Source: a candidate division WOR-3 bacterium (lineage in GTDB: Bacteria; Hydrothermota; Tepidihabitantia; Tepidihabitantales; Tepidihabitantaceae). Taken from it: a DNA stretch of 33,427 nucleotides. The stretch's first letter is position 1. Every line of letters begins with the position of its first letter. The DNA is taken from positions 1 through 33,427 of the forward strand of contig CAIVTL010000054.1 of NCBI GenBank assembly GCA_903908785.1. Reading direction: 5' to 3'. Shown piece by piece: positions 3,559-33,318 of this stretch. Under the pieces are notes generated by a model, which saw nothing but the letters and a program-made list of their open reading frames with translations, did not search any database and was not told the origin of the DNA. The translations under genes and the position numbers were made by a program.

Positions 3559-3639
3559 CCTGTTCGCGCCCGGCATGTCAAACCCGCGCGCCGGGCCGCA
3601 GGCAGACGACTCAAGCGCAAGCTGCCGGGAGTGGGTCTT

Positions 3640-3682
3640 GGGATTTGGAGTTTGGGATTTGGTGTTTCCCGCTTCGAGCGGG
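3640..3682 (+). repeat. Composite module: four GGRNTTT heptamers followed by a CCCGC-loop-GCGGG hairpin (copy 1 of 3)
   Basis: The heptamers are gggattt ggagttt gggattt ggtgttt, followed by cccgc-ttcga-gcggg. The same architecture occurs at 4164-4204 and 31248-31289. Confidence 0.7.
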
Positions 3683-9260: not shown

Positions 9261-9490
9261 GCCTGAGCATGCAGTCACGAACGGCGGCACACGGGACCGC
9301 GTTGCGTCCAACCAGCATGTTCTACCAGCCCAAGGCCCGGATGCTGGTCATGGAGTTCCCCAGGCGCGGAACCTACATTTACCAGGGCGTGACGGCTCGC
9401 GCCTATGACCGGCTGAAGTGTTCCCTGCGCACGCAGGTCCGTTTTATCAAGAACCAAGACCGCCATTTCTGCGTCGTCGAGGCGCGTTGA
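9257..9490 (+). CDS. KTSC-domain-like small protein
   Basis: Its ATG overlaps the upstream TGA (ATGA). LVMEFPRRGTYIYQGVTARAYDRLKCSLRTQVRFIKNQDRHF fits the KTSC pattern (l.v.F..G..Y.Y.gV....y..l......g.f....r). Confidence 0.5.
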   Translation: MSLSMQSRTAAHGTALRPTSMFYQPKARMLVMEFPRRGTYIYQGVTARAYDRLKCSLRTQVRFIKNQDRHFCVVEAR

Positions 9491-9723
9491 CGCCCCATGA
9501 CAGTTCTGCGTCTACCTGACTGAATGCGGTTCGTCTTCCTGTCGTCATGGCAGCCCCGCCGACCGTAACTCGCAACTCGTAACTTGTAAGGTTGCGCTTC
9601 GCCCGCGCCAGGATTGGACCCGCGGTGCCGCGTCCGACCGGCTATCAGGCAGGCGCGGCCCGGCCGCTCACGCAACGCCGATACTGCCGTGCACGGCACG
9701 AAGCCTGCACTAACCTTCCTATC

Positions 9724-10516: not shown

Positions 10517-11299
10517 ATGAAGATGACCAGTGCAAGACGGATAGTCCTGGCTGTGCTCCTGCTCGCGCCGCTGGCGTGGGCCGGCGCGCTTGCCGCAGCG
10601 CAAGTAGTGGGAACCGCAGCAGCCGGGGCCCGGGCCGCTACCGTGACCGGATGGGTCGTGGACGCGAACTCGTGGCTGGGCCAGGGAATCCGTGGCCCGC
10701 AACATCAGGCACGCTCCGCGGCGTCGGCCGAAGCAGGTACGCCGCTGGTCATTCTTACCGACGATGGCTCAATCGTGTTCCCGGTCCAGCTCACGCCGCC
10801 GGCCGGCACGCACTCGAGCAACCTCAAGCTCGCGCCCTACGCCGAGCAACGGGTGACGGTCGGGGGCAGGCTCATCCGGCAGGGCCGTGAGAATGCGATT
10901 GTCATAGAGTACGTGAGCCGGGCAAATGACCCCGCAGCCGGGCCGCCGACCACGGCCCGGGAAACGTCCGGCGTCGAAGTCATCGCCCGAGTCAAGGAAA
11001 TGAACTCGTGGCTGGGCCAGGGTGGTTCCGGGCCCGAACAGCGGGACCGCACAGCGGCGCGCGCGAGGAGCGGTGAGCCGTTGGTGTTGGTTAACGATTC
11101 CGGGTACGTGCTCTACCCGGTCACGATGAGCACGCCCTCCGGCCCGGCGGCGAACGGTTTGCTCATGGACTATGCGGGGCAGACGGTGCGGGTGACAGGT
11201 ACGCTCATCGAGCGTGGCGGGGAGCGGGCCATCATGATTGACAGTGTGGCCGCGTACCTGCCGGGCACGGAGTTGGGAAGCCTCCGAGCGGAGAGATGA
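10517..11299 (+). CDS. Exported protein made of two tandem ~100-aa homologous domains
   Basis: ATG at 10517 lies 9 nt after GGAGGAG, and the signal peptide is KMTSARRIVLAVLLLAPLAWAGALAAA. The internal duplication pairs ...DANSWLGQGIRGPQHQ...GTPLVILTDDGSIVFPV...QRVTVGGRLIRQGRENAIVIEYV with ...EMNSWLGQGGSGPEQR...GEPLVLVNDSGYVLYPV...QTVRVTGTLIERGGERAIMIDSV. Confidence 0.75.
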   Translation: MKMTSARRIVLAVLLLAPLAWAGALAAAQVVGTAAAGARAATVTGWVVDANSWLGQGIRGPQHQARSAASAEAGTPLVILTDDGSIVFPVQLTPPAGTHSSNLKLAPYAEQRVTVGGRLIRQGRENAIVIEYVSRANDPAAGPPTTARETSGVEVIARVKEMNSWLGQGGSGPEQRDRTAARARSGEPLVLVNDSGYVLYPVTMSTPSGPAANGLLMDYAGQTVRVTGTLIERGGERAIMIDSVAAYLPGTELGSLRAER

Positions 11300-11402
11300 G
11301 AACCGACGGCCCCGCTGACTTTGAGACATTGCTGGTAGTGACCGAAGCCGGCCGCGCCGAAAGGCGCCGCCAGGAAACACGAACCGATCGGAGGAATGAG
11401 AA

Positions 11403-12448: not shown

Positions 12449-13522
12449 GTGACTGTGGCAAAGATAGCGCCAGGCATCAGCGGCGAGTTGTGCCGCGTCA
12501 GGACCGAGGATGGGCTGGAACTTCAGGGACTCTATGACGGGCGATGTCAGATGTCAGATGGCAGATGGCAGAAGTCAGAAGTGTCGAATCCGACCCCTGA
12601 CCCCCGACCCCTGACCCCCGACCCCTTTTGCGTAGTCCACGTTCACGGCTGGGATGGGAACTTCTATGAGAACCGGTTCGTTGACTACGCGGCGCAGGCG
12701 TGCGTGCGACGCGGTATCGGGTTTCTTACGGGCAACAACCGAGGACATGACTATATCGCGGACATCCTGAGGGACAGACGAAGTCAGAAGCTAGATGCTA
12801 GATGTCAGAAGTCAGAACTGAGGAAGCGGGCATCGGGACTGGACTATGTGCAACTGGGCGGGATGTATGAGAAGCTGGCGGAGAGCGTGGCGGACATCGG
12901 GGCGTGGGTTGACTTTGTTGTCGGGCGCGGCGCGAAGCGGGTCATCCTGCAGGGGCATAGCCATGGAGCGACAAAGGTCGTCCATTATCTCGCGACGACC
13001 AGCGACCCGCGCGTCTGCGGGTTGATTCTGCTTTCACCGTCGGACGATATGGGCTGGGTCAGAAAGCTGCTCGGCCAGCGGTTCCTGTGGGTGCTGGCGC
13101 GAGCGCGAGAGTGGGTGCGCGCGGGCAAGGGCCGACAACTGCTGCCGGAGAAGGACTTCCCCTACCCGGTCTCTGCCGCGACGTTCTTTGACTGCTACCA
13201 CAAGGGCTCGATAACCGGCAGCTTCAACATCAGCCGCACCGACCGTAAGGAGTTCCCGGAGCTTGCGTCAGTCCGCGTGCCGGTGCTGCTGGCGGTCGGC
13301 ACGGTCGAGGAGTACTACGTCGGTTCGGCGCAGGGATTCATGCAGGGCATTGCCGAGTGCCTGGAGAATTGCCCGTCGTTCACCGGCGCGGTCGTCGAGG
13401 GCGCGCCGCACAACTACCTGGGGTACGAGCGGGAGCTGGGCAAAGTGCTGGAGAAGTGGCTGACTAAGAAGTGGTCCAGTGGTCGAGTGTTCGAGTCGTC
13501 GAGTGCCGGAGGGAAGAAATGA
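12449..13522 (+). CDS. Alpha/beta-fold hydrolase with two repeat-encoded inserts
   Basis: VVHVHGWDGNFYENRF is consistent with an oxyanion region. The nucleophile elbow is GHSHG (LQGHSHGATKVV), followed by GLILLSPSDD. It has a GTG start with no SD. The inserts CQMSDGRWQKSEVSNPTPDPRPLTPDPF and SQKLDARCQKSEL are encoded by heptamer repeats. Confidence 0.75.
   Translation: MTVAKIAPGISGELCRVRTEDGLELQGLYDGRCQMSDGRWQKSEVSNPTPDPRPLTPDPFCVVHVHGWDGNFYENRFVDYAAQACVRRGIGFLTGNNRGHDYIADILRDRRSQKLDARCQKSELRKRASGLDYVQLGGMYEKLAESVADIGAWVDFVVGRGAKRVILQGHSHGATKVVHYLATTSDPRVCGLILLSPSDDMGWVRKLLGQRFLWVLARAREWVRAGKGRQLLPEKDFPYPVSAATFFDCYHKGSITGSFNISRTDRKEFPELASVRVPVLLAVGTVEEYYVGSAQGFMQGIAECLENCPSFTGAVVEGAPHNYLGYERELGKVLEKWLTKKWSSGRVFESSSAGGKK
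12546..12622. repeat. 11 in-register heptamers (GTCAGAT/GGCAGAW then CCCYGAC) inside the hydrolase CDS
   Basis: The units read gtcagat gtcagat ggcagat ggcagaa gtcagaa gtgtcga atccgac ccctgac ccccgac ccctgac ccccgac. Confidence 0.85.
12783..12817. repeat. Five heptamers (GTCAGAA/GCTAGAT) inside the hydrolase CDS
   Basis: The units are gtcagaa gctagat gctagat gtcagaa gtcagaa. A near-identical block occurs at 15824-15858. Confidence 0.85.
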
Positions 13523-14465: not shown

Positions 14466-14552
14466 CCCGAATGCGAACCGGCGGCTGGCGCGGGCTCATT
14501 CGAGCTTGAATCGAGCTTCGAGTTTCGGGATTCGAGCTTACGGTGGCTGAAC

Positions 14553-15776
14553 ATGCGTTTTGATGAGTTCTTCGTTCGTGAGGGCCGGTTCGTGGCGGAT
14601 GATGTTACGCTGGACGAGATGGCGAGCCGGCATCCGACTCCATTCTACATCTACTCGGCGTCGGCCGTGCGCACGAAATACCGGCTGCTGAAGGACCAGT
14701 TTCCCGCGTTCGACATCTGCTATTCGTTGAAGGCCAATCCGAATCCTGCCGTCTGCCGCGTGCTCGCCGAGGCCGGGGCCGGGGCCGAGGTGAGCTCGCC
14801 GCGCGAACTCGCGACCGCGCTCAATGCCGGGTTCGCGCCGGACAGCATCATCTACGTCGCGCCGGCCAAGACTGCGGCTGACATCGAGCGGGCGCTGGCG
14901 GCAGGCATCTACGCAATCGTGGCCGACTCTACATCGGAACTGGAGTTGGTCGAGTCGGCGGCGCGCAAGCTGGGCAGGCCGGCCCGCGTCCTGCTACGTA
15001 TCAATACGATGGAGCGCCAGCCCGAGGCCAGGGAGGTGATGGTCGGCGGCCCGAGCAAGTTCGGGTTCGATGAAGAGCGGGTTGTCGCCGAGGCGGCCGG
15101 GCGGGAGTTGAAGCAGGCGCGAATTGCCGGGATCCAAGTATACTCGGCGAGCCAGGTGCTGGACCCGGCGTGGCTGGCCGAACATATCGAGTATGTGCTC
15201 AAGCTGGCGAGGAGACTGAGCCGGGAAGCCGGGTTCAAGCTGGAGTGCGTTGATTTCGGCGGTGGGTTCGGCATACCGTATGGTGAGAACGACAAGGAGT
15301 TGAATCTCGGCCTGGTCGCAGCCATGACGCAGAAGTCTCGGGACGAGTTCCGTGAGGCCGAACCCGGTTGCCGTCTCGTATTCGAGTCCGGCCGGTACCT
15401 GGTTGCCGAGTCGGGCGTATTCGTTACACGCGTGGTGCGGGTGAAGGAGTCGCGCGGTCGTGTGTTCGCTATCTGCGACGGCGGGATGAACGCGTTTGCC
15501 CGGCCGGTGTTCATGCGCGTTCGGCACCCGGCGCGGCTGCTCAACAAACTCGGCGAGAAGCCGACGCAGGAAGTGGACGTCTGCGGGCCGATATGCACGC
15601 CCCTTGACTGCATCGCCAAGGGCGCGCGGCTGCCGCAGCCGGAACCGGGCGACCTCGTTGGCCTGTTGAACGCTGGCGCGTACGGGTACACGATGAGCCT
15701 GCTTGACTTCATGAGCTTGGGGCGGCCCGCGGAACTGCTGGCTGACAACGGAGGACTGCGGTTGGTTAGCAGCTAG
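14553..15776 (+). CDS. Type III PLP-dependent decarboxylase (Orn/DAP/Arg decarboxylase family, LysA-like)
   Basis: PTPFYIYS and the PLP-lysine motif YSLKANP are present, along with DFGGGFGIPY, ESGRYLVAESG and NAGAYGY. The active-site region reads VCGPICTPLD rather than the LysA-type CESGD. The longest ORF starts at 14358, but that part is repeat-derived. Confidence 0.85.
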   Translation: MRFDEFFVREGRFVADDVTLDEMASRHPTPFYIYSASAVRTKYRLLKDQFPAFDICYSLKANPNPAVCRVLAEAGAGAEVSSPRELATALNAGFAPDSIIYVAPAKTAADIERALAAGIYAIVADSTSELELVESAARKLGRPARVLLRINTMERQPEAREVMVGGPSKFGFDEERVVAEAAGRELKQARIAGIQVYSASQVLDPAWLAEHIEYVLKLARRLSREAGFKLECVDFGGGFGIPYGENDKELNLGLVAAMTQKSRDEFREAEPGCRLVFESGRYLVAESGVFVTRVVRVKESRGRVFAICDGGMNAFARPVFMRVRHPARLLNKLGEKPTQEVDVCGPICTPLDCIAKGARLPQPEPGDLVGLLNAGAYGYTMSLLDFMSLGRPAELLADNGGLRLVSS

Positions 15777-15823
15777 GAGTTAGCGGTTAGGAGTGGAAAC
15801 CGGGGCACCGGAGGGCGGGCGAA

Positions 15824-15858
15824 GTCAGATGTCAGAAGCTAGATGCTAGAAGTCAGAA
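15824..15858. repeat. Five heptamers (GTCAGAW/GCTAGAW), intergenic
   Basis: The units are gtcagat gtcagaa gctagat gctagaa gtcagaa, the same word family as 12546 and 12783. Confidence 0.85.
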
Positions 15859-15901
15859 GTGCCGAGACGGTGGACGGAAGTTGGCGTCGGTCCCGGCCGG
15901 G

Positions 15902-18207: not shown

Positions 18208-18963
18208 CTATGCCGAGCCGTTCGTACGCGAAGAGCCGGTCTGGTCGGCCCGGCTGTGGCCGGGGTCATTGTCGGCGGACAGCGCGGTGATGCGGGCAGA
18301 CAAAGGGGCAAACACCGGAAGAGAAGAGAGACCGGAATCCGCAGCCCAGCGACTCAGCTCCTCCAGCTTGTGCTTGAGCTTGCGCTTGTGCCCGTCGTTT
18401 GCCCGATTCAGCACGCCCCACAGCTTCCGGGCGTAGAGGCGCAGGCGGAAAGCAACCACTGCGCCGGATTCGATGCCGGCTCGGGACAGCTCCTCGGCCA
18501 CGAGGTCATCAAGGCGGCGCTGCGCGTCCTGCGACCGGGCATAGGCCGCAGCCCGGCTGAGTCGCTTGCCCTCAGGTTCGGGCTTGCGTCGTGAGCGGGT
18601 GACCTTGTCGTCGTATCTTCGGACTGCGTCCCAGACACCAGGAGGCAGCTTGCCGGCGAGGCTGCGGACGCGCTTATACCCGCGCTGCTCCAGCACGGTC
18701 GGCTTAGAAGTGTAGGCCTCAAGCAGGTCGGAGATGTCCACAAAAGACGCCCGGCACGCCCGCAGATAATCGGCGACAAACCCGAGCGAAGGGTATGGCG
18801 CTCTGCCCAACTCGACCTTCCCGATGAGCTGATGGTTGCCCTTTCCCTGTCTCCCCATCAGGACTGCCAGTTCCTGTTGAGTGATGCCCTCTTTGAGCCT
18901 CAGCGCACGAAGCCGCAGTCCCATCTCTTCCGTGAACCTGAACATCTCTTTACTCCGGCTCAT
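18208..18963 (-). CDS. XRE-family HTH transcriptional regulator with a long uncharacterised C-terminal region
   Basis: The N-terminal helix-turn-helix reads LRLRALRLKEGITQQELAVLMG. The ATG at 18963 lies only a few nt downstream of a TTGACG-17-TATCAT promoter, which suggests a leaderless mRNA. Confidence 0.8.
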   Translation of the reverse strand: MSRSKEMFRFTEEMGLRLRALRLKEGITQQELAVLMGRQGKGNHQLIGKVELGRAPYPSLGFVADYLRACRASFVDISDLLEAYTSKPTVLEQRGYKRVRSLAGKLPPGVWDAVRRYDDKVTRSRRKPEPEGKRLSRAAAYARSQDAQRRLDDLVAEELSRAGIESGAVVAFRLRLYARKLWGVLNRANDGHKRKLKHKLEELSRWAADSGLSSLPVFAPLSARITALSADNDPGHSRADQTGSSRTNGSA

Positions 18964-19340
18964 TACATGCGCATGATACCAATAAGACTCATGCGCGTCA
19001 ACGGCGGCTGGAGGATAAGCCCTGACAGGAGAACGGGTTTAGGGATTCCGGGGCAGACGCAGCCCCGTTTCCGCCGCAGACCTGAGCATCTCACTGGACC
19101 GGCTCATGCCACGCGCATAATACCAATAAGACTCATGCGCGTTGACGGCGGCGGAGGGATAAGCCCCGACAGCAGCACGGGCTTAGGGATTCCGGGGCAG
19201 TTTCAGCCTCCCCTCCGCCGCAGACATGAGCACCTCACTGGACTGGCTCATGGCGCGCGTATGATATCAATAAGACTCATGCGCGTTGACTGCGACGGGA
19301 GGATAAGCGCCGATGGTAGCGCGGGCTATGGGAGTTGGGG
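18961..19340. repeat. Tandem repeat of a 144-bp unit, about 2.6 copies (unit starts 18961, 19105, 19249)
   Basis: Each unit carries the ataccaataagactcatgcgcg operator core, ggataagc and ttagggattccggggcag. Copies 2 and 3 also carry a decayed copy of the first codons of the XRE gene. Confidence 0.9.
18965..19001 (-). promoter_or_regulatory. Sigma70-type promoter (TTGACG-N17-TATCAT) overlapped by an 8-bp inverted repeat operator GCGCATGA-N12-TCATGCGC
   Basis: The minus strand reads cgccgTTGACGcgcatgagtcttattggTATCATgcgcatgtaATG. The inverted repeat lies at 18969-18976 and 18989-18996. Confidence 0.6.
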
Positions 19341-19865: not shown

Positions 19866-22430
19866 TCAGGGGGCGAAGACGACGCGGGTTGTGGCCGCGC
19901 GGTCAAGGGTCTTGACCCGAACGACATAGACACCGGCGCGGGTATCGGACGCCGGTTTCCAGACGTAGCCGGATGGCGTGGCGACGAGCGCAGAGTTGGG
20001 GTCGGAGCTGGATGCGATGAACCTTCCGGCGGCGTCGTAGATGCGGGCAGAGGTGGTCGAGTGGTCAAGTGGTCCGGTGGTCAAGTGAATGAGAAGGGAG
20101 GTGCGGAAGGGGTTGGGGCGGGCGGAGATGGTGCGTGCGAAGCCCGTGGCCTTGTGTCCGTCGGCCAGCCCGACGAACGGGGAGAGCTTGCCCCATATGC
20201 GGGTCGTGTTCGTCACGCGGCCGCCGATTGAGTCTGTCCAACCATCCCAGGTCGCGAGGACACGGCCGGAGGCGTTCGAGGTCAGGGCCGGGAGCGACTC
20301 GCTACCGGTGCCCCGCATGACCGCGAACGTGTCGAGCACGGTGCCGAGCGTACTCACTCGAGCTCCGTGGATGGTCGTGCTGTCCATACCCCATGCCTGC
20401 CAGGCGACGATGTAGTCGGTACCGTCGAACGTGACTGTCGGTTCAGTGGCCGGGTCCGTTGATACGGCCAGGCCCGCTGTGTCGAGCACGGTGCCGGTAC
20501 GTGTCACGCGGGCGGCGTAGACGCCGACAGCGTCCCCCGATGTCCAGACAACCAGGTAGCTGCCTCCGCCGTAGGCAATGGCTGGTTCCCGGAGGTTGTT
20601 CTCGCCTGCTGCGATTTCGATTCCCGCGGTATCGAGCACGACCCCCGCCTGAGTGACGCGAGCACCGTAGATGTCAAAGTGCGGGAGCGTGTCCGGTCGG
20701 CGAGTATCTACCCAGGTGATGAGGTAGTCGGTGCCGTCAAATGCCACCGCCGGTTCGTACTTGTCCGGCGGCGCCACGGACACAACGAAGTTGGCGGGGT
20801 CGAGCAGATGTCCCCTTTCGTTTACGCGTGCAGCGTATATGTCGTCGCTCATGTTATTGGCCTCGTGCTGCCAGACGACTAGAAAAGCCGTTTCACAGGC
20901 AGCTACGGCCGGCTCAAACTGGAAGTCGCCACGTATCGCGACTGCAATCCCAGATGTATCGAGGACGTGTCCTGACGGGCTCACCCGCGCTGCATAGATA
21001 TCAGAGTAGTTGTTACCTTCCCGCCAGTCTTCCCATGCGACGAGATAGCAGGTACTGCAAGCGGCAACCGACGGGGCGGTCCCGCGTGAGACAGGAAAGG
21101 GCCGCGGGTCCAACAGGCCTCCCTGGGACGAGACCCGCGAGGCATATATGTCACATGTCGGCCCGCGACGATAGTCTTGCCATGCGACCAGGAAGTCGGT
21201 TCCATCAGAGGCACAGCATGGGGATGACTGCTCGTAGACGCCCGAGGAAACGAGAACCTCGGCAGTGTCGAGGACGTTTGCGTCCGGGGTCAACCTGGCG
21301 CCGAACACATCTTGACGCCATGCGCCTTCGTAGCAGTCCCAGACTACCCAGAAGTTGGTGCCGTCAAAGACGGCAGCCTGCCCCGTCAGCCCGCCGTTCA
21401 TCCGGTTGATTCGGAACCCGTCCGGGTCGAGTACGCCTCCCGATTGGTCAATGCGGCAACCACAGGCCCCTTGCGGCCCGCTGAATGCCACGAGATAGTA
21501 CGGGCTTCCGAACGTCACGGAAGCATCACCCTCGTTCTGGTCGGCCGTCGCAACCGGGATCCCGCCTGAGTCGAGCACCACGCCGGACCGAGTCACCCGT
21601 GTCGCGAAGACGTCGTACTGGGAGTTCCGGGCGCGGTCCCACGTAACAAGGAAGTAGTCGCCGCCGAATGCCACCGACTGCCCGTACGTCCTGGCAGTGT
21701 CCGCTACGATCAGGATGCCCGCAGTGTCCAGAACGTCTCCGGACGGAGTCACCCGCGCACCGTAGACGTGGACGCCGTCTTGAGTGCTCGTCCATATCAC
21801 CATGTAGTTGGAGTCACCAAATGCAATCTCCTGGGCGCACTGGTAGCCAATGGAGCGAGTTACCGCAAATCCGCTGGGGTCCAGAACGGTTCCGCTCTGG
21901 TTCAAGCGAGCGGCGTAGATGTCAGTGTTGTCCTGTTGCCAAGCCACCAGGTAGTTCGTGCCATCGAACGCGATTGACGGGTCAGCGGCGTAGGCAGAGA
22001 TCGGTGACACCTTGATCGGTGGCTCGTCAAGGACTTGGCCCGAGCGCGAGACACGTGTGCCGCAGATGGCGCCACCGGGCGCGTCCCACACGACGAAGTA
22101 GTTTGTGCCGTCGAAGGCGACTCGCGGATGTTCGTTGGTTACCAGGGGATCGGTTATGCTGAAACCGCAACTGTCCAAGAGCCGGCCCGAGTTGTCAACG
22201 CGGGCGGCGTATATGTCATAGCCGTAGTGATCCGTCCGGCCGTCCTGCCAGACGACGAGGTAGTTTGTTCCATCCCACGCCGTGACTGCCTCATACTGTC
22301 GGTAAGGAGCACGCGCGTAGACCACCTGCGAATCGAGCAGGAATGCGTCAGGGTCGGGCGGGTCGGCGGCGGCCAGCCCGGCGAGGATGAGAAGCGGCGC
22401 GGCGAGCAGGGACAGGTTCGTTTTGAGCAT
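19866..22430 (-). CDS. Exported protein with ~14 tandem ~50-aa repeats (FDGTNYLVVW...DIYGARV...G.VLD..GI.V) and T9SS C-terminal sorting domain
   Basis: ATG at 22430 follows GGAGG, and the signal peptide is MLKTNLSLLAAPLLILAGLAAA. The repeats were read directly from the translation. The C-terminus is NPFRTSLLIHL...IYDAAGR...GVYVVRV...RVVFAP. Confidence 0.85.
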   Translation of the reverse strand: MLKTNLSLLAAPLLILAGLAAADPPDPDAFLLDSQVVYARAPYRQYEAVTAWDGTNYLVVWQDGRTDHYGYDIYAARVDNSGRLLDSCGFSITDPLVTNEHPRVAFDGTNYFVVWDAPGGAICGTRVSRSGQVLDEPPIKVSPISAYAADPSIAFDGTNYLVAWQQDNTDIYAARLNQSGTVLDPSGFAVTRSIGYQCAQEIAFGDSNYMVIWTSTQDGVHVYGARVTPSGDVLDTAGILIVADTARTYGQSVAFGGDYFLVTWDRARNSQYDVFATRVTRSGVVLDSGGIPVATADQNEGDASVTFGSPYYLVAFSGPQGACGCRIDQSGGVLDPDGFRINRMNGGLTGQAAVFDGTNFWVVWDCYEGAWRQDVFGARLTPDANVLDTAEVLVSSGVYEQSSPCCASDGTDFLVAWQDYRRGPTCDIYASRVSSQGGLLDPRPFPVSRGTAPSVAACSTCYLVAWEDWREGNNYSDIYAARVSPSGHVLDTSGIAVAIRGDFQFEPAVAACETAFLVVWQHEANNMSDDIYAARVNERGHLLDPANFVVSVAPPDKYEPAVAFDGTDYLITWVDTRRPDTLPHFDIYGARVTQAGVVLDTAGIEIAAGENNLREPAIAYGGGSYLVVWTSGDAVGVYAARVTRTGTVLDTAGLAVSTDPATEPTVTFDGTDYIVAWQAWGMDSTTIHGARVSTLGTVLDTFAVMRGTGSESLPALTSNASGRVLATWDGWTDSIGGRVTNTTRIWGKLSPFVGLADGHKATGFARTISARPNPFRTSLLIHLTTGPLDHSTTSARIYDAAGRFIASSSDPNSALVATPSGYVWKPASDTRAGVYVVRVKTLDRAATTRVVFAP

Positions 22431-22505: not shown

Positions 22506-24755
22506 CTAGGGCGTGAAGACGACGCGGGCGGTTGCGGTGCGGGCGGCGGTTTGCACGCGGATAAGGTAGACGCCGGCGTGCTGACCTCGGAAGTCCAGCG
22601 CGATTTCCGATTTCGGATTCGAGATTCGGAGTTGACGGCAGAGGCGGCCTTGGGCGTCGAAGATGTGGACAGATGTGGTCGAGTGGTCAAGTGGTCCAGT
22701 GGTCAAGTGAATGAGAAGCGAGGTGCGGAAGGGGTTGGGCGATGTGCTCAGCGCGGCGCGGGGGTCGGATGGGACGTGGCTTGGTTCAGCCAGGCCGACG
22801 AACTGCCTGGTCTGGTAGAGTTCGAGGGGATATCCCGGGGTCAGGTTGCGGCCCGACAAACCGGGGTAGTCCGGCGGATAGCGCAGCGCGCGGAACGTGT
22901 TGTTCTGTTTGCCGGACGCGCCGCCGGGCACGGTGTCTCCCTGGTACAGCCGGGTCGAGTCGGTCGCGGGACTCAAGTAGTGCCAGACAATCTGGCTGTC
23001 GCGGGTCACCTCGAAGAAGGCGCCGAGGTCGCTTTCGCAGATAAGCGTGTTCCCGTTCGGGAATCGCTGCGCGCCGCCCATGGTCGCAGAGAAGAGGCTC
23101 GCCGGCGGCGTGGCGACGTAGACCCAGCATTGCGCGGCCGGCCCGAACGGGGTTCCGGGTGCGGGTCGCGGGTAGTTGCCGGCGCTGTCGCACGGGGGGA
23201 TGAATTCGTCAACCGATGAGTAGCCCCGGCCGTCGATGCCGTTGTTGAACAATAGAATGTGCCCGGCGCCCGGCAAGCCCGGCCCAATCCACTGTGCGTT
23301 GTGCTGGCCGAAGAGCTTGCGGTCCGTGGTGTCGCCGGCGCGGTAGGCGCGCGGGTTGCCCCAGCGGTAGAGCAGGTCGCCGCCCATGCCGAACCGGCCG
23401 CCGGTGTGACCGCGCGCTTCCTCGGTGGTTGTGCTGTGGTCAATGACCCAGACCTCGTTCAGGTTGTGGATGCTCAGTATTACCTGGTCGAAATCCGGGT
23501 TGTAGGCGACGGAGTTCACGTGCAGCCAGTCCGGCGCGCCGCGCAGCGGGGGCGGGCCGGTGAAGTTGATGTCCGCGAGTTCGGAGTGCTGGGCCGGGTC
23601 GCCGTAGTTGGCCTTGGTCGAGTCGTAGTCCTGGATGAGATGGTCCCAGACGTGCCACTCCCACACGATGCTGTCCGTGGCCGGGTTGACTTCGACGACG
23701 TGGTCGGGCCAGAGCTTGTTCTGGACGAGCCAGGACGGGTTGCGGCCGGCGGCGACCGCTTCGGCGCGCGTCTTGAGTTCCCATGCCACGAGCAGGACGT
23801 TGCCGTTCGGTAGCGACGCGATGTCGTGGTGCTGGCAGTGCAGGGTGCTGGAATACTGGTAGGACCATTGTAGGCTGCCGTCCCAGTCGTACCGCTCGAC
23901 CCGACCGCCGGTTCCTCCGCCGGGGAAGCTTGAGTTGCCCAGTCGCGCGCTGCGCAGCAGGCTGCCGTCTTCGAGCAGGTAGCAGGACGCGCCGGGCGGA
24001 TAGCTGCTGTGCCAAGTGCGGACGAGCCGGCCCTTGTTGTCAATCAAGTACGTGAACTTGTACGAAAGCGGGGTGAACAATGTGTAGCCGACGAAGGCGG
24101 AGCTGTCGTTGCGGAACAGGCCGAGCGTCTGCGAGTCGGCCGAGAGCTCGCGGACGAAGCCGCGGATGGAGCCGTCAAGGCTACTGAGGTCATTCCACGT
24201 CGGCACCCGCACGCCGGTCGACTCGCCGAAGTGGAGTGCATTCTCGTTGCCGCCCTGGTTGTCCGGCTCGCCCGGAGACCATTTGCGGAAGCCCATTGCC
24301 TCGTTCGTGACCCAGTGCCAGCCGCTGTCCGGTTCGTGTGAGCCGAAGTCCTGGGTGCCGCCCAGCCAGGGCCCGGCCAGCAGGCCCGTGCCGGGTCGCT
24401 CGTACCAGTAGACACCGGAGTCGACCAGGCCGAACACGAAATCGTTCTCGGCCGGCGACGTGACGGTGGCAAGGTAGCCGCCGTGTCCGAGAGCCGAGTC
24501 CCAGGCGAAATTCCAGTCGATGCCGTCGGGTGTGCTTATAGCGTGGTAGTAGTGCACACTCCCGTCAGGGTGGAACCAGGGCTCAGGCTGAGCGGCAGCC
24601 CAGCCGACGGTCAGACAGAGAAAGAGGAATGAAGAACGAAGAACGAGGAACGAGGAACGAGGAATGAGGAGTGAGGAACGAGGAGTGAAGAAGGAGGAAC
24701 GAAGGGTGAAGAACGAGGAACGAAGTAACGATGAACGAAGAACGGTTGTGCGCAT
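22506..24755 (-). CDS. C-type lectin domain + arylsulfotransferase (ASST)-like beta-propeller + T9SS C-terminal sorting domain
   Basis: The lectin region reads W..AWDSALGHGGYLATVTSPAENDFV...GPWLGG...GWHWVTNE...WSPGEPDN..GNENALHF...WNDL. ASST-like blocks include HHDI..LPNGNVLL, DWLHVNSV.YNP..DQVILS and LLYRWGNPRAY. The CTD reads NPFRTSLLIHL...IFDAQGR...GVYLIRV...RVVFTP. ATG at 24755 follows AGGAGA. Confidence 0.85.
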   Translation of the reverse strand: MRTTVLRSSLLRSSFFTLRSSFFTPRSSLLIPRSSFLVLRSSFLFLCLTVGWAAAQPEPWFHPDGSVHYYHAISTPDGIDWNFAWDSALGHGGYLATVTSPAENDFVFGLVDSGVYWYERPGTGLLAGPWLGGTQDFGSHEPDSGWHWVTNEAMGFRKWSPGEPDNQGGNENALHFGESTGVRVPTWNDLSSLDGSIRGFVRELSADSQTLGLFRNDSSAFVGYTLFTPLSYKFTYLIDNKGRLVRTWHSSYPPGASCYLLEDGSLLRSARLGNSSFPGGGTGGRVERYDWDGSLQWSYQYSSTLHCQHHDIASLPNGNVLLVAWELKTRAEAVAAGRNPSWLVQNKLWPDHVVEVNPATDSIVWEWHVWDHLIQDYDSTKANYGDPAQHSELADINFTGPPPLRGAPDWLHVNSVAYNPDFDQVILSIHNLNEVWVIDHSTTTEEARGHTGGRFGMGGDLLYRWGNPRAYRAGDTTDRKLFGQHNAQWIGPGLPGAGHILLFNNGIDGRGYSSVDEFIPPCDSAGNYPRPAPGTPFGPAAQCWVYVATPPASLFSATMGGAQRFPNGNTLICESDLGAFFEVTRDSQIVWHYLSPATDSTRLYQGDTVPGGASGKQNNTFRALRYPPDYPGLSGRNLTPGYPLELYQTRQFVGLAEPSHVPSDPRAALSTSPNPFRTSLLIHLTTGPLDHSTTSVHIFDAQGRLCRQLRISNPKSEIALDFRGQHAGVYLIRVQTAARTATARVVFTP
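24624..24728. repeat. 15 in-register heptamers GARGAAC (105 nt) encoding residues ~10-44 of the lectin/ASST protein
   Basis: The units read gaggaat gaagaac gaagaac gaggaac gaggaac gaggaat gaggagt gaggaac gaggagt gaagaag gaggaac gaagggt gaagaac gaggaac gaagtaa. The translation shows a 7-aa period (RSSFFTL RSSFFTP RSSLLIP RSSFLVL). Confidence 0.9.
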
Positions 24756-24764
24756 GTGATTCTC

Positions 24765-26156
24765 CTATTCCACTACCAGTTTCCGTGTCGCGGAGCCGCC
24801 GGCGTAGTCGAGCTTAACCAGATAGACCCCGGCGGCCAGGCCGGTAACTCGTAACTCGCAACTCGTAACCCGCAACTCGCTCAGCACCAGCTTGCCGGTG
24901 ACGTCGTAGAGGGAAAGGGAGGAGGGAGGAGAGAGGAGGGAGGAGCTGTAACTGATGGTCGTCGACGAGTGGCAGGGGTTCGGGGAAACGGTGAACGATG
25001 AACGATGAACGTTGAACGAGTGTCCGGTCAGGCCGGTCATCAGAATAAACCCCAGCGAGTCGGTTTTCACCAGCAGTACGCTGCCGCCGGCGGAGTCGGA
25101 CGTGCCGGCAACCACGTAGCCGCCGTCCGCGGTCTGCCGGACAGAAGCGGCCTGTTCCATACCGGTTCCGGGCAGCACGCTCGTCCAGACCGTGTCGGCA
25201 TTGGAGTCGAGCTTGACCAGCCAGGCCCGGGCCGAGTCGCCCCAGTCAATGGTACCGGCGATGATGTAGCCGCTGTCGCTGGTTGGCTGCATCGCTGTCG
25301 CCCTGGTTGCCGCTCCGGGAACAGCGATTTGGCGGGTCCAGAGCAGAGCGCCGACGCTGTCGGTGCGGAGTAGATAGAGTGCGTCAAGTGACTGGAGCGT
25401 GTCGATTTCGGAGCCGGCGGCAAGGAATCCGCTGTCCTGCGTCTCCGTCACTGCTTTAAGCATCGGCGCCACCGGGCCGTGGTATGTCCGCGTCCATGCT
25501 GAATCGCCGTTCGGCCGCAGGCGCGCGAGGCGCATGTAATTCGCGACATAGTCGTTGGCAATGCCGCAGAGGACGAAGCCTCCGTCGCGGGTCTGGGCCG
25601 CGCCATGCGCCCAGGAGTCGTACATCCTCGGTTCATCGTACCAGCGCGCCCATTCTTCCTGACCGTCTGCGGCCAGTTTGATGGCGCCCATGTCGAACGC
25701 GGTGTCCGGTATCCGACCGGCGACGAGGCAGCCGCCGTCGGAAGTGGGGATGATTGTCGAGACCGGCCCGCCCCAGGTTGACTGATAGTTCCAGAGCGAG
25801 TCATCCGCCGGGCCGAACCCACGGACGAAAATCCTGCCGGCGGACTCGGCCAGGACCGCATAGCCGCTGTCAGCCACGCGGCACGAGAGACCGCCGTCCG
25901 CGTCCAGGCCGAAGATGTGACGTACGGAAAGTGTGTCGCCCAGGGAGTCGGTCCGCACCAGCACGACTCCGAAACTACCGGATGCGACGTGGGTCCCGCC
26001 GCTCGTGACGTACCCGCCATCGGGGAGCTGTGCCGCGGAGCGGCCGGTATCGGCAATGTACCAGTGCCAGCGGTTCTCGAACGTAATCGTCGCCAGCGCC
26101 AGCGCGGGCAGCGCGAGCAGTATCAGCGCTCTGCCGGTTCGGCACGGGGCGCGCAT
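24765..26156 (-). CDS. Exported repeat (propeller-like) protein with T9SS C-terminal sorting domain, paralogue A
   Basis: The signal peptide is ALILLALPALALA. It has recurring DGGY..(A)G......d.wlvK.ds.G...W motifs. The CTD reads NPCHSSTTISY...LYDVTGKLV...GVYLVKL...RKLVVE. By eye it is more than 60% identical to 26198-27604. Confidence 0.8.
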   Translation of the reverse strand: MRAPCRTGRALILLALPALALATITFENRWHWYIADTGRSAAQLPDGGYVTSGGTHVASGSFGVVLVRTDSLGDTLSVRHIFGLDADGGLSCRVADSGYAVLAESAGRIFVRGFGPADDSLWNYQSTWGGPVSTIIPTSDGGCLVAGRIPDTAFDMGAIKLAADGQEEWARWYDEPRMYDSWAHGAAQTRDGGFVLCGIANDYVANYMRLARLRPNGDSAWTRTYHGPVAPMLKAVTETQDSGFLAAGSEIDTLQSLDALYLLRTDSVGALLWTRQIAVPGAATRATAMQPTSDSGYIIAGTIDWGDSARAWLVKLDSNADTVWTSVLPGTGMEQAASVRQTADGGYVVAGTSDSAGGSVLLVKTDSLGFILMTGLTGHSFNVHRSSFTVSPNPCHSSTTISYSSSLLSPPSSLSLYDVTGKLVLSELRVTSCELRVTGLAAGVYLVKLDYAGGSATRKLVVE

Positions 26157-26197: not shown

Positions 26198-27604
26198 CTA
26201 TTCAACCACCAGTTTCCGCGTCGCGGTGCCGCCGTCGCAGTCGAGCTTGAGCAGGTAGACACCGGCCGGCATTGACCGGAGGTCAAGCCGGAATGACGAC
26301 GAACGAGGAACGATGGACGATGAACGATGAACAAGGACCAGGTAGCCGGTGACGTCGTAGAGGCGGAGGGAGGAGGGAGCAGTGAGGAGGGAGGAGACCA
26401 GGACGAAGCCGTGGCAGGGGTTGGGCGTGAAGGAGAGGCGTAAGGGGCGGGGGTTGGGGGGCGAGGGTTCTTCAATGCCAATCCGGCCCAGCGAATCGGT
26501 CTTGATTGCCATCATGCGGCCACCGGAGAGGTCGCTCGAACCGGCGATAATGTACCCGCCGTCCGTCGTCTGTTCGATGTCGGCCGCGTTCTCCCGCCAC
26601 GGCCCGCCCACGACGCGGGTCCAGGTCGTGTCGCAATCGGCATCGGTCTTGACCAGCCAGGCCCGGGCCGAGTCGCCCCAGTCAATCGAGCCGGCGATCA
26701 TGTAGCCGCCGTCCCGGGTTGCGCACATCGCCGCCGCCTGGGCCGCGGCGCCGGGAGGCGCGAGGTGGCGGGTCCAGAGCGTATCGCCGGTGGAGTTGGT
26801 GCGCAACATGTAAAGGGCATTGCGGCTGCTTGAGGTGTCGAACTCGTACCCGACCGCGAGGAACCCGCCGTCCGACGTCTCCCGCACGTCACTCAGCATC
26901 GGGCCGACCGGGCCGTGGTACAACCGGGTCCAGGCCGAGTCGCCGTTCGGCCGGATTCGAGCCAGCCGCATGTTGACCGAGGTGTAGTCGTTGGACTCGC
27001 CGCAGAAAATGTAGCCGCTGTCCCGGGTCTGGGCGGCGCCATGCGCCCAGGAGTCAAACATCCGCGGCTCATCGTACCAGCGCGCCCACTCCTCGTGGCC
27101 ATCCGCGGCCAGCTTGATGGCGCCCATGTCGTACGCCGTGTCCGGAATCCGGCCGGCAAGAAGGCAGCCGCCGTCGAAGGTCGGGATGAATGCCGAGACC
27201 GGGCCGCCCCAGGTTGACTGGTAGTTCCAGAGCGAGTCACCCGCCGGGCTGAACCCGCGCACGAAGATTCTTCCGCCGGACTGGGCCAGGACCGCATAGC
27301 CGCCGCCGGTCAGCCGGCACGAGAGGCCGCCGTCCGGGTCCACGTCGAGAATCTGGCGTACCGAAGTCGTGTCTCCGGAGTCGTTGGTCCGCGCCAGCAC
27401 GACGCCGTAGCTGCCGGTAGTGACCTGCATGCCGCCGCTGATGATGTAACCGCCATCCGGGAGCTGGGCCGCGGCGCGGCCGACATCCGCGATGTACCAG
27501 TGCCACCGGCGCACAAAGTTGGGGGATGCCAGCGCCAGCACCGGGATTGCCAGGAGGAGTAAGGTCAAGGTTGAGGTTAAGGTTGAGGGTGAGGAACGGC
27601 GCAC
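26198..27604 (-). CDS. Exported repeat (propeller-like) protein with T9SS C-terminal sorting domain, paralogue B
   Basis: GTG at 27604 lies 7 nt after GGAG and 4 nt after the upstream stop. The domain plan matches 24765-26156. The N-terminal PSTLTSTLTLLLL is encoded by aaggtt-type hexamers (27555-27598). Confidence 0.8.
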   Translation of the reverse strand: MRRSSPSTLTSTLTLLLLAIPVLALASPNFVRRWHWYIADVGRAAAQLPDGGYIISGGMQVTTGSYGVVLARTNDSGDTTSVRQILDVDPDGGLSCRLTGGGYAVLAQSGGRIFVRGFSPAGDSLWNYQSTWGGPVSAFIPTFDGGCLLAGRIPDTAYDMGAIKLAADGHEEWARWYDEPRMFDSWAHGAAQTRDSGYIFCGESNDYTSVNMRLARIRPNGDSAWTRLYHGPVGPMLSDVRETSDGGFLAVGYEFDTSSSRNALYMLRTNSTGDTLWTRHLAPPGAAAQAAAMCATRDGGYMIAGSIDWGDSARAWLVKTDADCDTTWTRVVGGPWRENAADIEQTTDGGYIIAGSSDLSGGRMMAIKTDSLGRIGIEEPSPPNPRPLRLSFTPNPCHGFVLVSSLLTAPSSLRLYDVTGYLVLVHRSSSIVPRSSSFRLDLRSMPAGVYLLKLDCDGGTATRKLVVE

Positions 27605-31170: not shown

Positions 31171-31289
31171 TGGAGACGAGCATCTACAGATTCCACAGAT
31201 TACGCGGACTACGGACTCTGGACTTTGGACTATGGACCACGAACTCAGGATTTAGAGTTTGGAGTTTGGGACTTCCCGCCCCTCGCGGG
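31171..31289 (+). repeat. Composite: 25-nt word (inverted copy of 15907-15931), ten GGACTNT/GAGTTTG heptamers, then a CCCGC-loop-GCGGG hairpin (copy 3 of 3)
   Basis: catctacagattccacagattacgc is followed by ggactac ggactct ggacttt ggactat ggaccac gaactca ggattta gagtttg gagtttg ggacttc, then cccgc-ccctc-gcggg (31275-31289). Confidence 0.8.
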
Positions 31290-31295
31290 TTTGGG

Positions 31296-32399
31296 TCAAT
31301 TGTCGCCCAGAACCCGTCGCGTCGCGGCCGCGTGCTCGGCCAGCGTGCGGGAAAAGGTGTGCGTGCCGTCACCGTTGGCAACGAAGAAGAAATAGTCGTG
31401 TCGCTCGGGATTGAGCGCGGCCGCAAGCGCCCGACGGCCGGGATTGGAGATGGGGCCGGGCGGCAGGCCGGCGTGGAGGTAGGTGTTGTAGGGCGACTCG
31501 ATTCGCGTGTCGGCCACAGTCAGGATTCCCTTGCGTTCGGGCAGGAGACACTCGACCGTCGCGCAGGACTGGAGCGGCATGCCGCGGCGCAGGCGGTTCA
31601 TGAACACGCCGGCGATGCGGTCAAACTCCTCCGGAACCTTGGCCTCGCGCTCGACGATGGACGCCAGGATGACGGTCTGAGAAGGGGGGAGGGGCGAGGG
31701 GCGAGGGGCGAGTGACGAGTCGCGGAGTTCAGAGAAGACGGAGGAGAACTGGCGGAGCAAGCGGCGGACGACGTCGCCGGGCGGCGAGTTGGTCAGGAAC
31801 TCGTAGGTCTCCGGAAACAGGTAACCCTCGGCCGTGGGTCCGGTCACGGCGAACTCCCTGAGCAGGTTGGTGTCGGCGCAGGCGGCAAGGAAGCTGTCGG
31901 CCCGGCAGATGCCGCGTTCCGCAAGTGCCGCGGCAACTTCGTTCATCGTGAAGCCTTCAGGTATCGTGACCATCACGAGCGCGGGTTCCTCGCGGGACAG
32001 CAGTTTGAGCACGCGCCTTTCACCGATGCCGACCGGCAGGCGGTAGCGGCCCGGCCTGATGCGCGGCGCGTAGTTGTAGTACCAGGAATAGAAGAAAAAC
32101 AGGGGCTTGGAGCCGATAACCTGCCGGGCTGTGAGCGTATCGGCGAGCGCGCGGATGCTCAACTCCGGCTGGATGCTCACCTCAACGCGGCGGCCACTCG
32201 TCTTCGCCGCTTTCGGGGAACCACACGCGACAAAGGACAAAATGACAAGGAAAAAGGACAAAGTAACAAAGACAAAGGACAAAGCAAACGGGAAAGGACA
32301 AAGTGCAGAGGCCCGGTCCGTTTTGGCCTTGGTACTTTCCACTTGCTTTGTCCTTACGACTTTGTCCTTAGTACTTGACCCGAGATCTCGCGTCGTCAC
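31296..32399 (-). CDS. mltG: Endolytic murein transglycosylase MltG (YceG family)
   Basis: Motifs are GYLFPETYEF, ILASIVEREA, GVFMNRL...MPLQSCATV, SPYNTYLHAGLPPGPISNPG and FFFVANGDGTHTFS. GTG start at 32399 lies 15 nt after the ruvX stop. The N-terminal TM segment is repeat-encoded. Confidence 0.9.
   Translation of the reverse strand: MTTRDLGSSTKDKVVRTKQVESTKAKTDRASALCPFPFALSFVFVTLSFFLVILSFVACGSPKAAKTSGRRVEVSIQPELSIRALADTLTARQVIGSKPLFFFYSWYYNYAPRIRPGRYRLPVGIGERRVLKLLSREEPALVMVTIPEGFTMNEVAAALAERGICRADSFLAACADTNLLREFAVTGPTAEGYLFPETYEFLTNSPPGDVVRRLLRQFSSVFSELRDSSLAPRPSPLPPSQTVILASIVEREAKVPEEFDRIAGVFMNRLRRGMPLQSCATVECLLPERKGILTVADTRIESPYNTYLHAGLPPGPISNPGRRALAAALNPERHDYFFFVANGDGTHTFSRTLAEHAAATRRVLGDN
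32229..32366. repeat. GACAAAG heptamer block (32229-32303) and inverted CTTTGTC copies (32346-32366) inside the 5' end of mltG
   Basis: The forward block reads gacaaag gacaaaa tgacaag gaaaaag gacaaag taacaaa gacaaag gacaaag ..., followed by ctttgtc at 32346 and 32360. Confidence 0.85.
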
Positions 32400-33018: not shown

Positions 33019-33318
33019 GAAGGCTCCCGCCAAACTCCTCGCGAAGCTCTCTGCGAAGCTCATTCGTAAGCTCCTGTCGAAGCTCTCTACATTGCTCATT
33101 CGGAAGCTCATTACGAAGCTCCCTTCGAAGCACCTTTCGATGCGTCTTTCGTCGCTTCCTTCGTCGCACATTGCGAAGCTCCTTTCGTCGCACATCACGT
33201 TGCTCATGTCGAAGCTCCTTTGGAAACTCACGACGAAGCTCCCTTGGAAGCTCACAAGGAAGCTCCTTTCGATGCTCTCTTCGATGCTGCTTCGGTTGCT
33301 CCTTCTGATGCTGCCCAG
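33019..33318. repeat. Array of 25 degenerate units in strict 12-nt phase (consensus GAAGCTCNNNNC)
   Basis: Units were read by hand: gaagctctctgc gaagctcattcg taagctcctgtc gaagctctctac ... gaagctcctttc gatgctctcttc gatgctgcttcg gttgctccttct. No phase break occurs over 300 nt. Confidence 0.85.

Follow-up and report, generated by a model that had tools for sequence, protein, structure and literature searches.

The array-bearing gene

The DNA analysed here, referred to throughout as the window, is a stretch of 33,427 nucleotides (nt) from an uncultured candidate division WOR-3 bacterium (GenBank GCA_903908785.1, contig CAIVTL010000054.1), and the element in question is an array of degenerate heptanucleotide repeats at the 5' end of an open reading frame (ORF) of 749 amino acids (aa) at 22506-24755 on the minus strand. 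In Pfam and NCBIfam profile scans the product matches arylsulfotransferase (ASST) families (PF05935, PF14269) and the T9SS (type IX secretion system) sorting domain (PF18962 and TIGR04183), the former sorting-domain profile matching residues 673-745 at 27.9 bits (cutoff 27) and the latter scoring 35.3 bits (cutoff 23). A C-type lectin match is weak in this protein but clear in several homologues; the named homologues of the protein belong to candidate division WOR-3. Together with homologue alignment and substitution rates, these matches describe a mature protein (22509-24590) with a C-type-lectin-like domain, a beta-propeller of the ASST type and, at 22521-22739, a T9SS type A sorting domain. 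The combination of a C-terminal Por_Secre_tail sorting domain and a predicted N-terminal Sec signal is that of a T9SS type A cargo.

The ATG start lies at 24753-24755 and is preceded, with a 5-nt spacer, by a Shine-Dalgarno-like AGGAGA (24761-24766) that shares bases with the upstream gene's TAG stop (24767-24765). Both are conserved in the syntenic loci L001 and L002, which encode the closest orthologue (P0002; 79% identity, 717 aa): the stretch from the ribosome-binding site (RBS) to the start reads TAGGAGAAT[A/C]ACATGCGCACAAC (TAGGAGAAT[A/C]ACATG) in all three, the ATGCGCACAAC start (MRTT...) is shared, and the orthologue opens identically (MRTTVLRSSLL...), with the first 11 codons conserved. 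The window gene encodes a leader and junction of MRTTVLRSSLLRSSFFTLRSSFFTPRSSLLIPRSSFLVLRSSFLFLCLTVGWAAAQ|PEPW. No ATG, GTG or TTG occurs in frame from codon 2 to codon 66; the next is a GTG at codon 67, which is past the GWAAAQ cleavage motif, and initiation at a downstream start of these three kinds is thereby ruled out.

Extent and composition of the array

Tandem Repeats Finder, run on the window, places the array at 24620-24744, with a period of 7, 17.7 copies, 75% matches and 1% indels. Read unit by unit, it extends over 24618-24744 on the minus strand and consists of 18 degenerate CGTTCCT units on the coding strand (GARGAAC-like on the plus strand) and one extra base, corresponding to nt 12 to 138 of the gene and to residues 4-46 of the protein (VLRSSLL RSSFFTL RSSFFTP RSSLLIP RSSFLVL RSSFLFL). 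The 15 units at 24624-24728, which cover codons 10-44, read GAGGAAT GAAGAAC GAAGAAC GAGGAAC GAGGAAC GAGGAAT GAGGAGT GAGGAAC and then GAGGAGT GAAGAAG GAGGAAC GAAGGGT GAAGAAC GAGGAAC GAAGTAA on the plus strand; GARGAAC is exact in 8 of them, with 12 mismatches over the 105 nt. Alignment with the orthologue in L001 and L002, taken with the unit register, locates the extra base at 24723, where a T following the third unit produces one 8-nt unit (CGTTACT-T) and leaves the first three units at the 5' end one base out of register. The longest perfect tract is 24 nt (3.4 units). Over the array (125 nt) the plus strand is 86% purine and the coding strand accordingly 86% pyrimidine.

Such an array is far beyond chance. 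Under one scoring scheme applied to all periods from 2 to 13, the window contains 11 arrays of period 7 compared with none in base-shuffled copies, and 0-4 arrays of each other period. An assembly artefact was ruled out as the source of the array by the presence of the same 749-aa product in four assemblies.

A predicted signal peptide of unusual length

The array falls within a predicted 55-aa Sec signal peptide (24591-24755, minus strand), recognised from hydropathy, charge and the A-Q-P-E-P-W junction found in homologues. Its layout is a periodic n-region of ~42 aa, composed of Arg, Ser and hydrophobic residues (net charge +7), followed by an h-region, FLFLCLTVGW, and a c-region, AAA, so placed that signal peptidase would be expected to cleave at AAA|Q, before Q56. 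The extension repeats RSS plus four hydrophobic residues, and no hydrophobic run exceeds four residues until FLFLCLTVGW is reached. Its N-terminal position directly after the start, positive n-region, h-region and small c-region residues are those predicted for a substrate of Sec signal peptidase I, but the length of 55 residues lies outside the typical range (about 18-30 residues). Among 109 homologues with an (A)QPEPW junction, the median length of the segment before the Q is 25 aa (interquartile range 22-26), and that of the window protein is the longest; the other long cases contain internal Met codons and look like mis-called starts.

Three other classes of export signal were considered and rejected. 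A twin-arginine translocation signal was ruled out by the lack of adjacent arginines, and hence of a twin-arginine motif (S/T-R-R-x-F-L-K), in residues 1-55. A lipoprotein signal was ruled out, as the Cys of FLFLC is not preceded by a small residue at -1 and most homologues lack this Cys. The extended signal peptide region (ESPR) was also ruled out, a Pfam scan of residues 1-207 (E up to 10) giving only weak matches to Lectin_C and DUF2958.

Orthologues, frame and translation of the array

At the position of the array, the orthologue P0002 has only four units (CGTTCTT CGTTCCT CGCTCCT CGTTCTC) and an ordinary 22-aa signal peptide, MRTTVLRSSLLVLCLIVGWAGA|QPEPW. The window sequence is longer by 99 nt, made up of 14 units (98 nt) and 1 nt, which equals exactly 33 codons; the frame was kept because one irregular unit carries the extra base at 24723. 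Two more distant orthologues (P0014 and P0126, 60% identity) have 7-8 CGTTCAT units at the same position, with a 6-nt indel between them, giving unit numbers of 4, about 7, about 8 and 18 across lineages. Heptamer-coded leaders recur within the family, in P0014, P0126 and also P0034. The sister lineage has kept an ancestral-like four-unit state. On longer time scales the array plainly alters, by microsatellite turnover filtered by selection for frame.

Comparison of the mature part with P0002 (residues 57-670) gives a synonymous divergence (dS) of 0.41 and a nonsynonymous divergence (dN) of 0.092, and the ratio dN/dS of 0.22 shows that the gene is under purifying selection. Within the array, all 6 units in which CGT is an in-frame Arg codon retain the CG of the unit, whereas in the other two phases it is retained by 5 of 12 (Fisher P=0.038; for the number of Arg, permutation P=0.025). 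Synonymous changes (TCG-to-TCA or TCG-to-TCC) account for three of the CGs that decayed. Given the conserved start, the frame-keeping difference of 33 codons, the lack of any other start before the cleavage motif, the purifying selection and the retained Arg codons, translation of the array within the signal peptide is almost certain.

An untranslated array would require either that the gene be a recent pseudogene or that translation begin at a non-canonical start, with the repeat serving as a 5' leader. Near-cognate codons are available (ATT at codon 31 and CTG at codon 48), and loss of the start does occur in the family, as a paralogue in L001 (2593-4557) has no canonical signal-peptide start. 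This explanation is nonetheless highly improbable, since the ATG, the RBS and the opening codons are shared with the orthologue, a tract with so pyrimidine-rich a coding strand leaves no room for a purine-rich RBS, the ORF of 749 codons is intact, and substitutions depend on codon phase.

An earlier note on this DNA, made from the letters and translated reading frames, had described a lectin/ASST-like T9SS cargo whose only start with a Shine-Dalgarno (AGGAGA) was the ATG at 24755, and an apparently translated repeat of 15 GARGAAC-like units encoding a 7-aa periodic peptide leading into GWAAAQ. The domain matches, start-codon survey, translation, unit table and repeat finding agree with each of these points, and the orthologue comparison supports translation. 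The size of the array was underestimated, as it extends to 18 units.

Another possibility is that the leader extension is adaptive, with a role of its own such as slowing or routing export, in the manner of the autotransporter ESPR, or acting as a transient membrane tether. The phase-dependent retention of Arg would fit such a role, as would the four Pro-to-Leu changes that raise hydrophobicity and the heptamer-coded leaders of the other family lineages. The statistics are weak, however (P about 0.03-0.04), ordinary leaders of 17-29 aa serve the closest orthologue and some 100 other homologues, and the leader matches neither ESPR nor any other N-terminal family and lacks a twin-arginine motif. 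Similar arrays in intergenic DNA and in cytoplasmic proteins also point to a mutational rather than a designed origin, and an adaptive leader is considered unlikely.

The array might instead act as a nucleic acid, either because its many UCCUC/CCUCC motifs mimic, in the mRNA, the anti-Shine-Dalgarno sequence and could pair with the gene's own AGGAGA or because the tract adopts H-DNA, as proposed for opa. The minimum-free-energy fold does pair GUGGAAUAGGAG with CUCCUUCUUCAC of the array (24761-24766 with 24680-24700), and the purine bias of the plus strand is in keeping with an H-DNA tract. The fold is no better than those of shuffled sequences (z = +1.6; 193 of 200 shuffles at least as good), the single DNA strand is without structure, and the tract is not a perfect mirror repeat. 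The UCCUC motifs are already present in the four-unit orthologue, so that the expansion adds qualitatively nothing new. No DNA hairpins were predicted and no Rfam families were found in the window. A regulatory element of this kind has very little probability.

Length constancy and the question of phase variation

The non-triplet unit between start codon and mature protein raises the possibility of an active contingency locus of the Neisseria opa type, in which slippage would add or remove units, bring the mature protein into or out of frame with the ATG and so turn production of the cargo on and off. The unit is not divisible by 3 and the array lies within the ORF near its 5' end (codons 4-46), as in such loci; unit number differs by lineage; replacement or homogenisation of sorting-domain arrays distinguishes strains whose proteins are at least 90% identical; and the CTCTT leader repeat of opa provides a precedent (PMC3960869). 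What is missing at the level of assemblies is a long near-perfect tract and copy-number polymorphism with out-of-frame alleles. At the protein level, the N-terminus of the 749-aa product is identical in the window and three further assemblies (ERZ1426824, ERZ1426811 and ERZ1426564), the sole difference among the four being one residue in the sorting domain, and N-termini are likewise uniform within the P0002 orthologue cluster. No out-of-frame or truncated alleles of the gene occur among the cluster members, and a scan of metagenome contigs with the conserved 20-mer ATGCGCACAACCGTTCTTCG returned no further array alleles, only four unrelated chance hits.

Neighbouring genes with near-perfect arrays in their sorting domains (5.4 units, 93% matches) are constant in length on at least 14 contigs, the only short members of their clusters being those cut by contig ends. 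Lineage differences that remain in frame through irregular indels fit slow evolution under selection, not rapid switching. With units that match at only 75% and no perfect tract longer than 24 nt, an active switch at this locus is very unlikely.

The contingency locus proposed by the earlier note is thus not supported, in contrast to its own caveat that the degeneracy of the units argues for low slippage, which the match rate and the perfect-tract length uphold. The same note had suggested checking whether array lengths vary in steps of three units. They differ by 14 units and 1 nt, or by a 6-nt indel, so that the frame is restored by irregular indels and not by triplets of units. What stands of its interpretation is a translated part of the leader.

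Heptamer arrays elsewhere in the window and its clade

Heptamer arrays are not confined to this gene. Tandem Repeats Finder finds about 19 arrays of period 7, 14 or 21 in the window, with at least 10 different units, a diversity that rules out a single mobile element spreading one sequence. The density of period-7 arrays per 10 kb is 3.3 in the window and 4.2 in L001, compared with 0 in most of 80 cargo-homologue loci from other taxa. In the WOR-3 clade of the window, such arrays are enriched about 30-fold. The leader array is one case of a clade-wide tendency to make 7-nt arrays, a context missed by the earlier note.

Besides the leader array, arrays of these periods lie at 3638-3667, 9564-9589, 12543-12817, 14511-14536, 15765-15860, 22601-22619, 24844-25019, 26296-26396, 31205-31269, 31683-31719 and 32229-32303, and octamer arrays (GTGGTCAA-like) at 13470, 18088, 20053 and 22675. 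The purine share of the arrays on the plus strand is suggestive of a strand bias but mixed (69% overall). About 11 window arrays are in supported coding sequence, namely the 749-aa leader, an anchor and a loop of MltG, three sites in a hydrolase, and six in or near the sorting domains of three cargo genes, and the rest are intergenic or upstream of starts.

Two of the coding arrays resemble that of the leader. An AACGATG array (CATCGTT on the coding strand, HRSSFTV) lies at 24987-25019 on the minus strand, just before the sorting domain of the upstream paralogue (24765-26156), and an ACGATGA/GAACGAG array at 26296-26337 on the same strand, giving VHRSSSIVPRSSS, was mapped inside the sorting domain of the gene at 26198-27604. 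Both were delimited by Tandem Repeats Finder. With the leader array they form one repeat family, GAACGAG/GAACGAT, which is also found in L001, L087 and L089.

In the MltG gene (31296-32399, minus strand), about 11 GACAAAG units at 32229-32303 encode the N-terminal membrane anchor, LCPFPFALSFVFVTLSFFLVILSFV. A heptad-periodic anchor, LCPFPIALSFVLVTLS, is common to close homologues, and that of the window is 4-11 residues longer (11 compared with the closest, P0248). A second array in this gene (AGGGGCG, 31683-31719) encodes an internal loop, a segment absent from distant homologues. The alpha/beta hydrolase gene at 12449-13522, whose product looks cytoplasmic, contains arrays at 12543-12579, 12590-12626 and 12780-12817 that encode the segments RCQMSDGRWQKSE, PTPDPRPLTPDPF and RSQKLDARCQKSE. 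None of the three heptamer-coded segments is present in distant homologues of ~300 aa, and closer homologues carry QKSE(T/V)R-type insertions of variable length, up to about 60 aa, at the same points. Such alignments show these translated arrays of the hydrolase and MltG to be lineage-specific insertions relative to distant homologues.

Repeats of other kinds were also observed. The leader of the cargo gene at 26198-27604 contains an array of period 6/12/18 (STLTSTLTL, 27560-27594) that is absent from its orthologue in L001, in which a heptamer array (943-992) lies just upstream of the start of that gene. At the end of the window (33023-33314) there is a degenerate array of period 12/24/36 with about 21 CGAAGCTCCTTT-like copies. 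At 18955-19327 a 144-nt unit is present in 2.6 copies (83% matches) upstream of, and overlapping, the start of a helix-turn-helix-domain gene (18208-18963, minus strand), each copy repeating a CTCATGCGCG...TTGAC segment around the start region. The paralogous ASST gene of L001 retains at 2430-2600 an intact in-frame leader-like sequence, ...CLVVGRADAQPEPW, with no ATG, GTG or TTG from the upstream stop to the cleavage motif, and is called from an internal codon (654 aa); either its start has been lost or a non-canonical start is used.

Arrays in T9SS sorting domains

Across 1.23 Mb of loci, sorting domains make up 2.3% of bases and hold 20 of the 130 arrays of period 7, 14 or 21, compared with 0/44, 0/65 and 0/88 arrays of periods 6, 10 and 12, respectively. 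Outside the clade of the window, 10 sorting-domain arrays were found where 2.0 were expected (P=4e-5). Most sorting-domain arrays lie in the interval from the NPFNP motif to the (V/I)YD..G strand, and such arrays occur in Ignavibacteriota (L020 at 7965-7984 and 9635-9657; L029 at 2878-2904, 9293-9319 and 11296-11320), in other metagenome-assembled genomes and in WOR-3, further period-7 examples being those of L017 (9581-9598), L009 (4261-4292) and the window (24916-24945 and 26365-26396). With small numbers and non-independent loci, the enrichment is best regarded as a lead.

Different arrays occupy the same two sorting-domain positions in L087 (4900-5181) and L089 (3790-4092), with (TTCATCG)x5 in one strain and a degenerate version in the other, and (ACTACTC)x5 opposite a degenerate CTCAATC. 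The proteins of these strains fall in one 90% identity cluster and the flanking DNA is ~93% identical in the aligned stretch, which indicates that the arrays are homogenised or turned over rapidly.

A separate observation concerns two 87-nt segments of the window (20031-20117 and 22653-22739) that are 93% identical, one in the sorting domain of the 854-aa cargo gene and one in that of the 749-aa gene. The shared segment contains the octamer array GTGGTCNA, giving HLTTGPLDHSTT, and the sorting domain of the 749-aa gene has diverged strongly from its counterpart in the orthologue (dN 0.88). These observations suggest that sorting-domain segments have been exchanged between neighbouring cargo genes.

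A broader proposal would be that heptamer and octamer arrays are preferentially located in both export signals of T9SS cargoes, the Sec leader at the N-terminus and, at the C-terminus, the sorting domain's first hairpin, across phyla of the Fibrobacteres-Chlorobi-Bacteroidetes group (here WOR-3 and Ignavibacteriota), serving as an evolvability or contingency device of which the leader array is a decayed member. If this were true, slippage would toggle or remodel the export and surface attachment of single cargoes and spare the catalytic part. The proposal is judged quite unlikely.

Probable origin and tolerance of the leader array

The array is probably best explained as a tolerated and now decaying slippage expansion of a four-unit tract in the n-region of a Sec leader, within a clade that generates heptamers. 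The tract would have grown from about 4 to 18 units, most likely by slipped-strand mispairing, and would be read from the ATG at 24755 in all three phases in rotation. A 7-nt unit is not divisible by 3, so that the phases rotate and produce the 7-residue period, R-S-S followed by four hydrophobic residues, and the peptide is compatible with a leader because the pyrimidine-rich unit encodes only Arg, Ser, Pro, Thr and hydrophobic residues, with no stops. The expansion would merely have lengthened the positive n-region to ~42 aa, leaving the h-region FLFLCLTVGW and the AAA|Q site untouched. As the whole leader would be removed on export, the mature enzyme would be unaltered and the expansion tolerated, and the units would since have decayed to 75% identity, leaving a stable, fossil-like repeat. 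More generally, arrays of heptamers (and some of 8 nt) may persist at sites that are tolerant of sequence, such as leaders, anchors, loops of sorting domains, surface loops of enzymes, and intergenic DNA. The array itself, the four-unit orthologue, the conserved frame, the purifying selection, the constant length among assemblies and the enrichment in the clade are observations; slippage as the mechanism, cleavage at AAA|Q and the near-neutrality of the expansion are what we infer from them.

Several points weigh against this explanation. The peak hydropathy of the h-region over 9 residues is 2.5, compared with 3.4 in the orthologue, and seven Arg in an n-region are unusual, so that the expansion could hamper export instead of leaving it unaffected. 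The survival of every in-frame Arg codon gives a hint that the peptide is under selection, which is a poorer fit to strict neutrality. Random local slippage alone does not explain why one heptamer family recurs at the same site in the 60%-identity orthologues and also within sorting domains of other genes. The four assemblies probably represent one population, which makes their agreement weak evidence on mutation rate, and both translation and cleavage have been deduced from sequence.

Taken by itself the locus is a neat and probably inconsequential variant, but a clean natural case of a frame-rotating microsatellite that adds 33 codons within a functional gene, and it illustrates why an export signal can absorb such an insertion. 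What merits following up is the set of coding arrays across the clade, together with the hot spot in sorting domains.

Comparison with known repeat systems

The closest precedent for a repeat within a signal peptide comes from the opa genes of Neisseria, where a CTCTT pentamer occupies the leader-peptide region and its copy number switches expression, at a rate of about 1e-3 per generation (PMC3960869; bioRxiv 10.1101/2020.09.16.300947). Both arrays are pyrimidine-rich and non-triplet, lie between the start and the mature protein and are translated in the signal peptide, and in both the number of units decides whether the ATG is in frame. The opa repeats, however, are perfect pentamers with coexisting on and off alleles in a host-adapted pathogen, whereas the window array is a degenerate heptamer in a free-living WOR-3 bacterium, in which neither a length variant nor an off allele was found.

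The window leader also resembles signal peptides that carry an ESPR, a conserved N-terminal motif of autotransporters and two-partner secretion proteins that has its own Pfam family and is not built from nucleotide repeats. Both are Sec signal peptides of about 50-60 residues with an N-terminal extension before a normal n-h-c core, but the conserved motif of the ESPR has no counterpart in the window leader, which gave no match to that family.

Among tandem heptamers, the short tandemly repeated repetitive (STRR) sequences of heterocystous cyanobacteria consist of defined heptanucleotide units. The GGGNATC (or GGGGAYT) heptamers of Xanthomonas and Nostoc prefer intergenic DNA, are under-represented in coding sequence and are capable of forming quadruplexes (Rehm 2015, PMC4692102). 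The window shares with both groups an over-representation of tandem 7-nt units relative to other lengths and a copy number that varies by locus; it differs in that the array is coding, with a CGTTCCT/GARGAAC unit, whereas theirs are defined G-rich units, preferentially in intergenic DNA.

A further likeness is to the TAACTGA-type heptamer direct repeats of Beggiatoaceae, Cyanobacteria and some Bacteroidetes, which are mostly intergenic or upstream of starts and are occasionally fixed at the periphery of ORFs, giving the 7-residue periodic peptide LSVISYQ (MacGregor 2015, PMC4679880). Tandem heptamer families that extend genome-wide, periodic peptides at ORF edges (LSVISYQ there, RSSFLVP here) and related strains without arrays at the same loci are common to both. 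There, however, one heptamer dominates, contains stop codons in one orientation and has been proposed as a regulator-binding site, whereas the window has many heptamers, the majority inside real genes and concentrated in secretion signals. WOR-3 is unmentioned in that study (PMC4679880).

The novelty claimed by the earlier note was overstated, given the textbook signal-peptide repeat of opa (PMC3960869) and the heptamers at ORF edges (PMC4679880). No description of heptamer arrays in signal peptides, T9SS domains or WOR-3 was found in a literature search that did not take in a 2007 PNAS survey of prokaryotic simple-sequence repeats. If the arrays prove genome-wide, the little-studied heptamer phenomenon, known from the intergenic DNA of Xanthomonas, Beggiatoa and cyanobacteria, would reach into coding sequence and point to an as yet unrecognised 7-nt-specific mutational process, and annotators would be warned that leaders of unusual length and periodic make-up may be genuine in these genomes.

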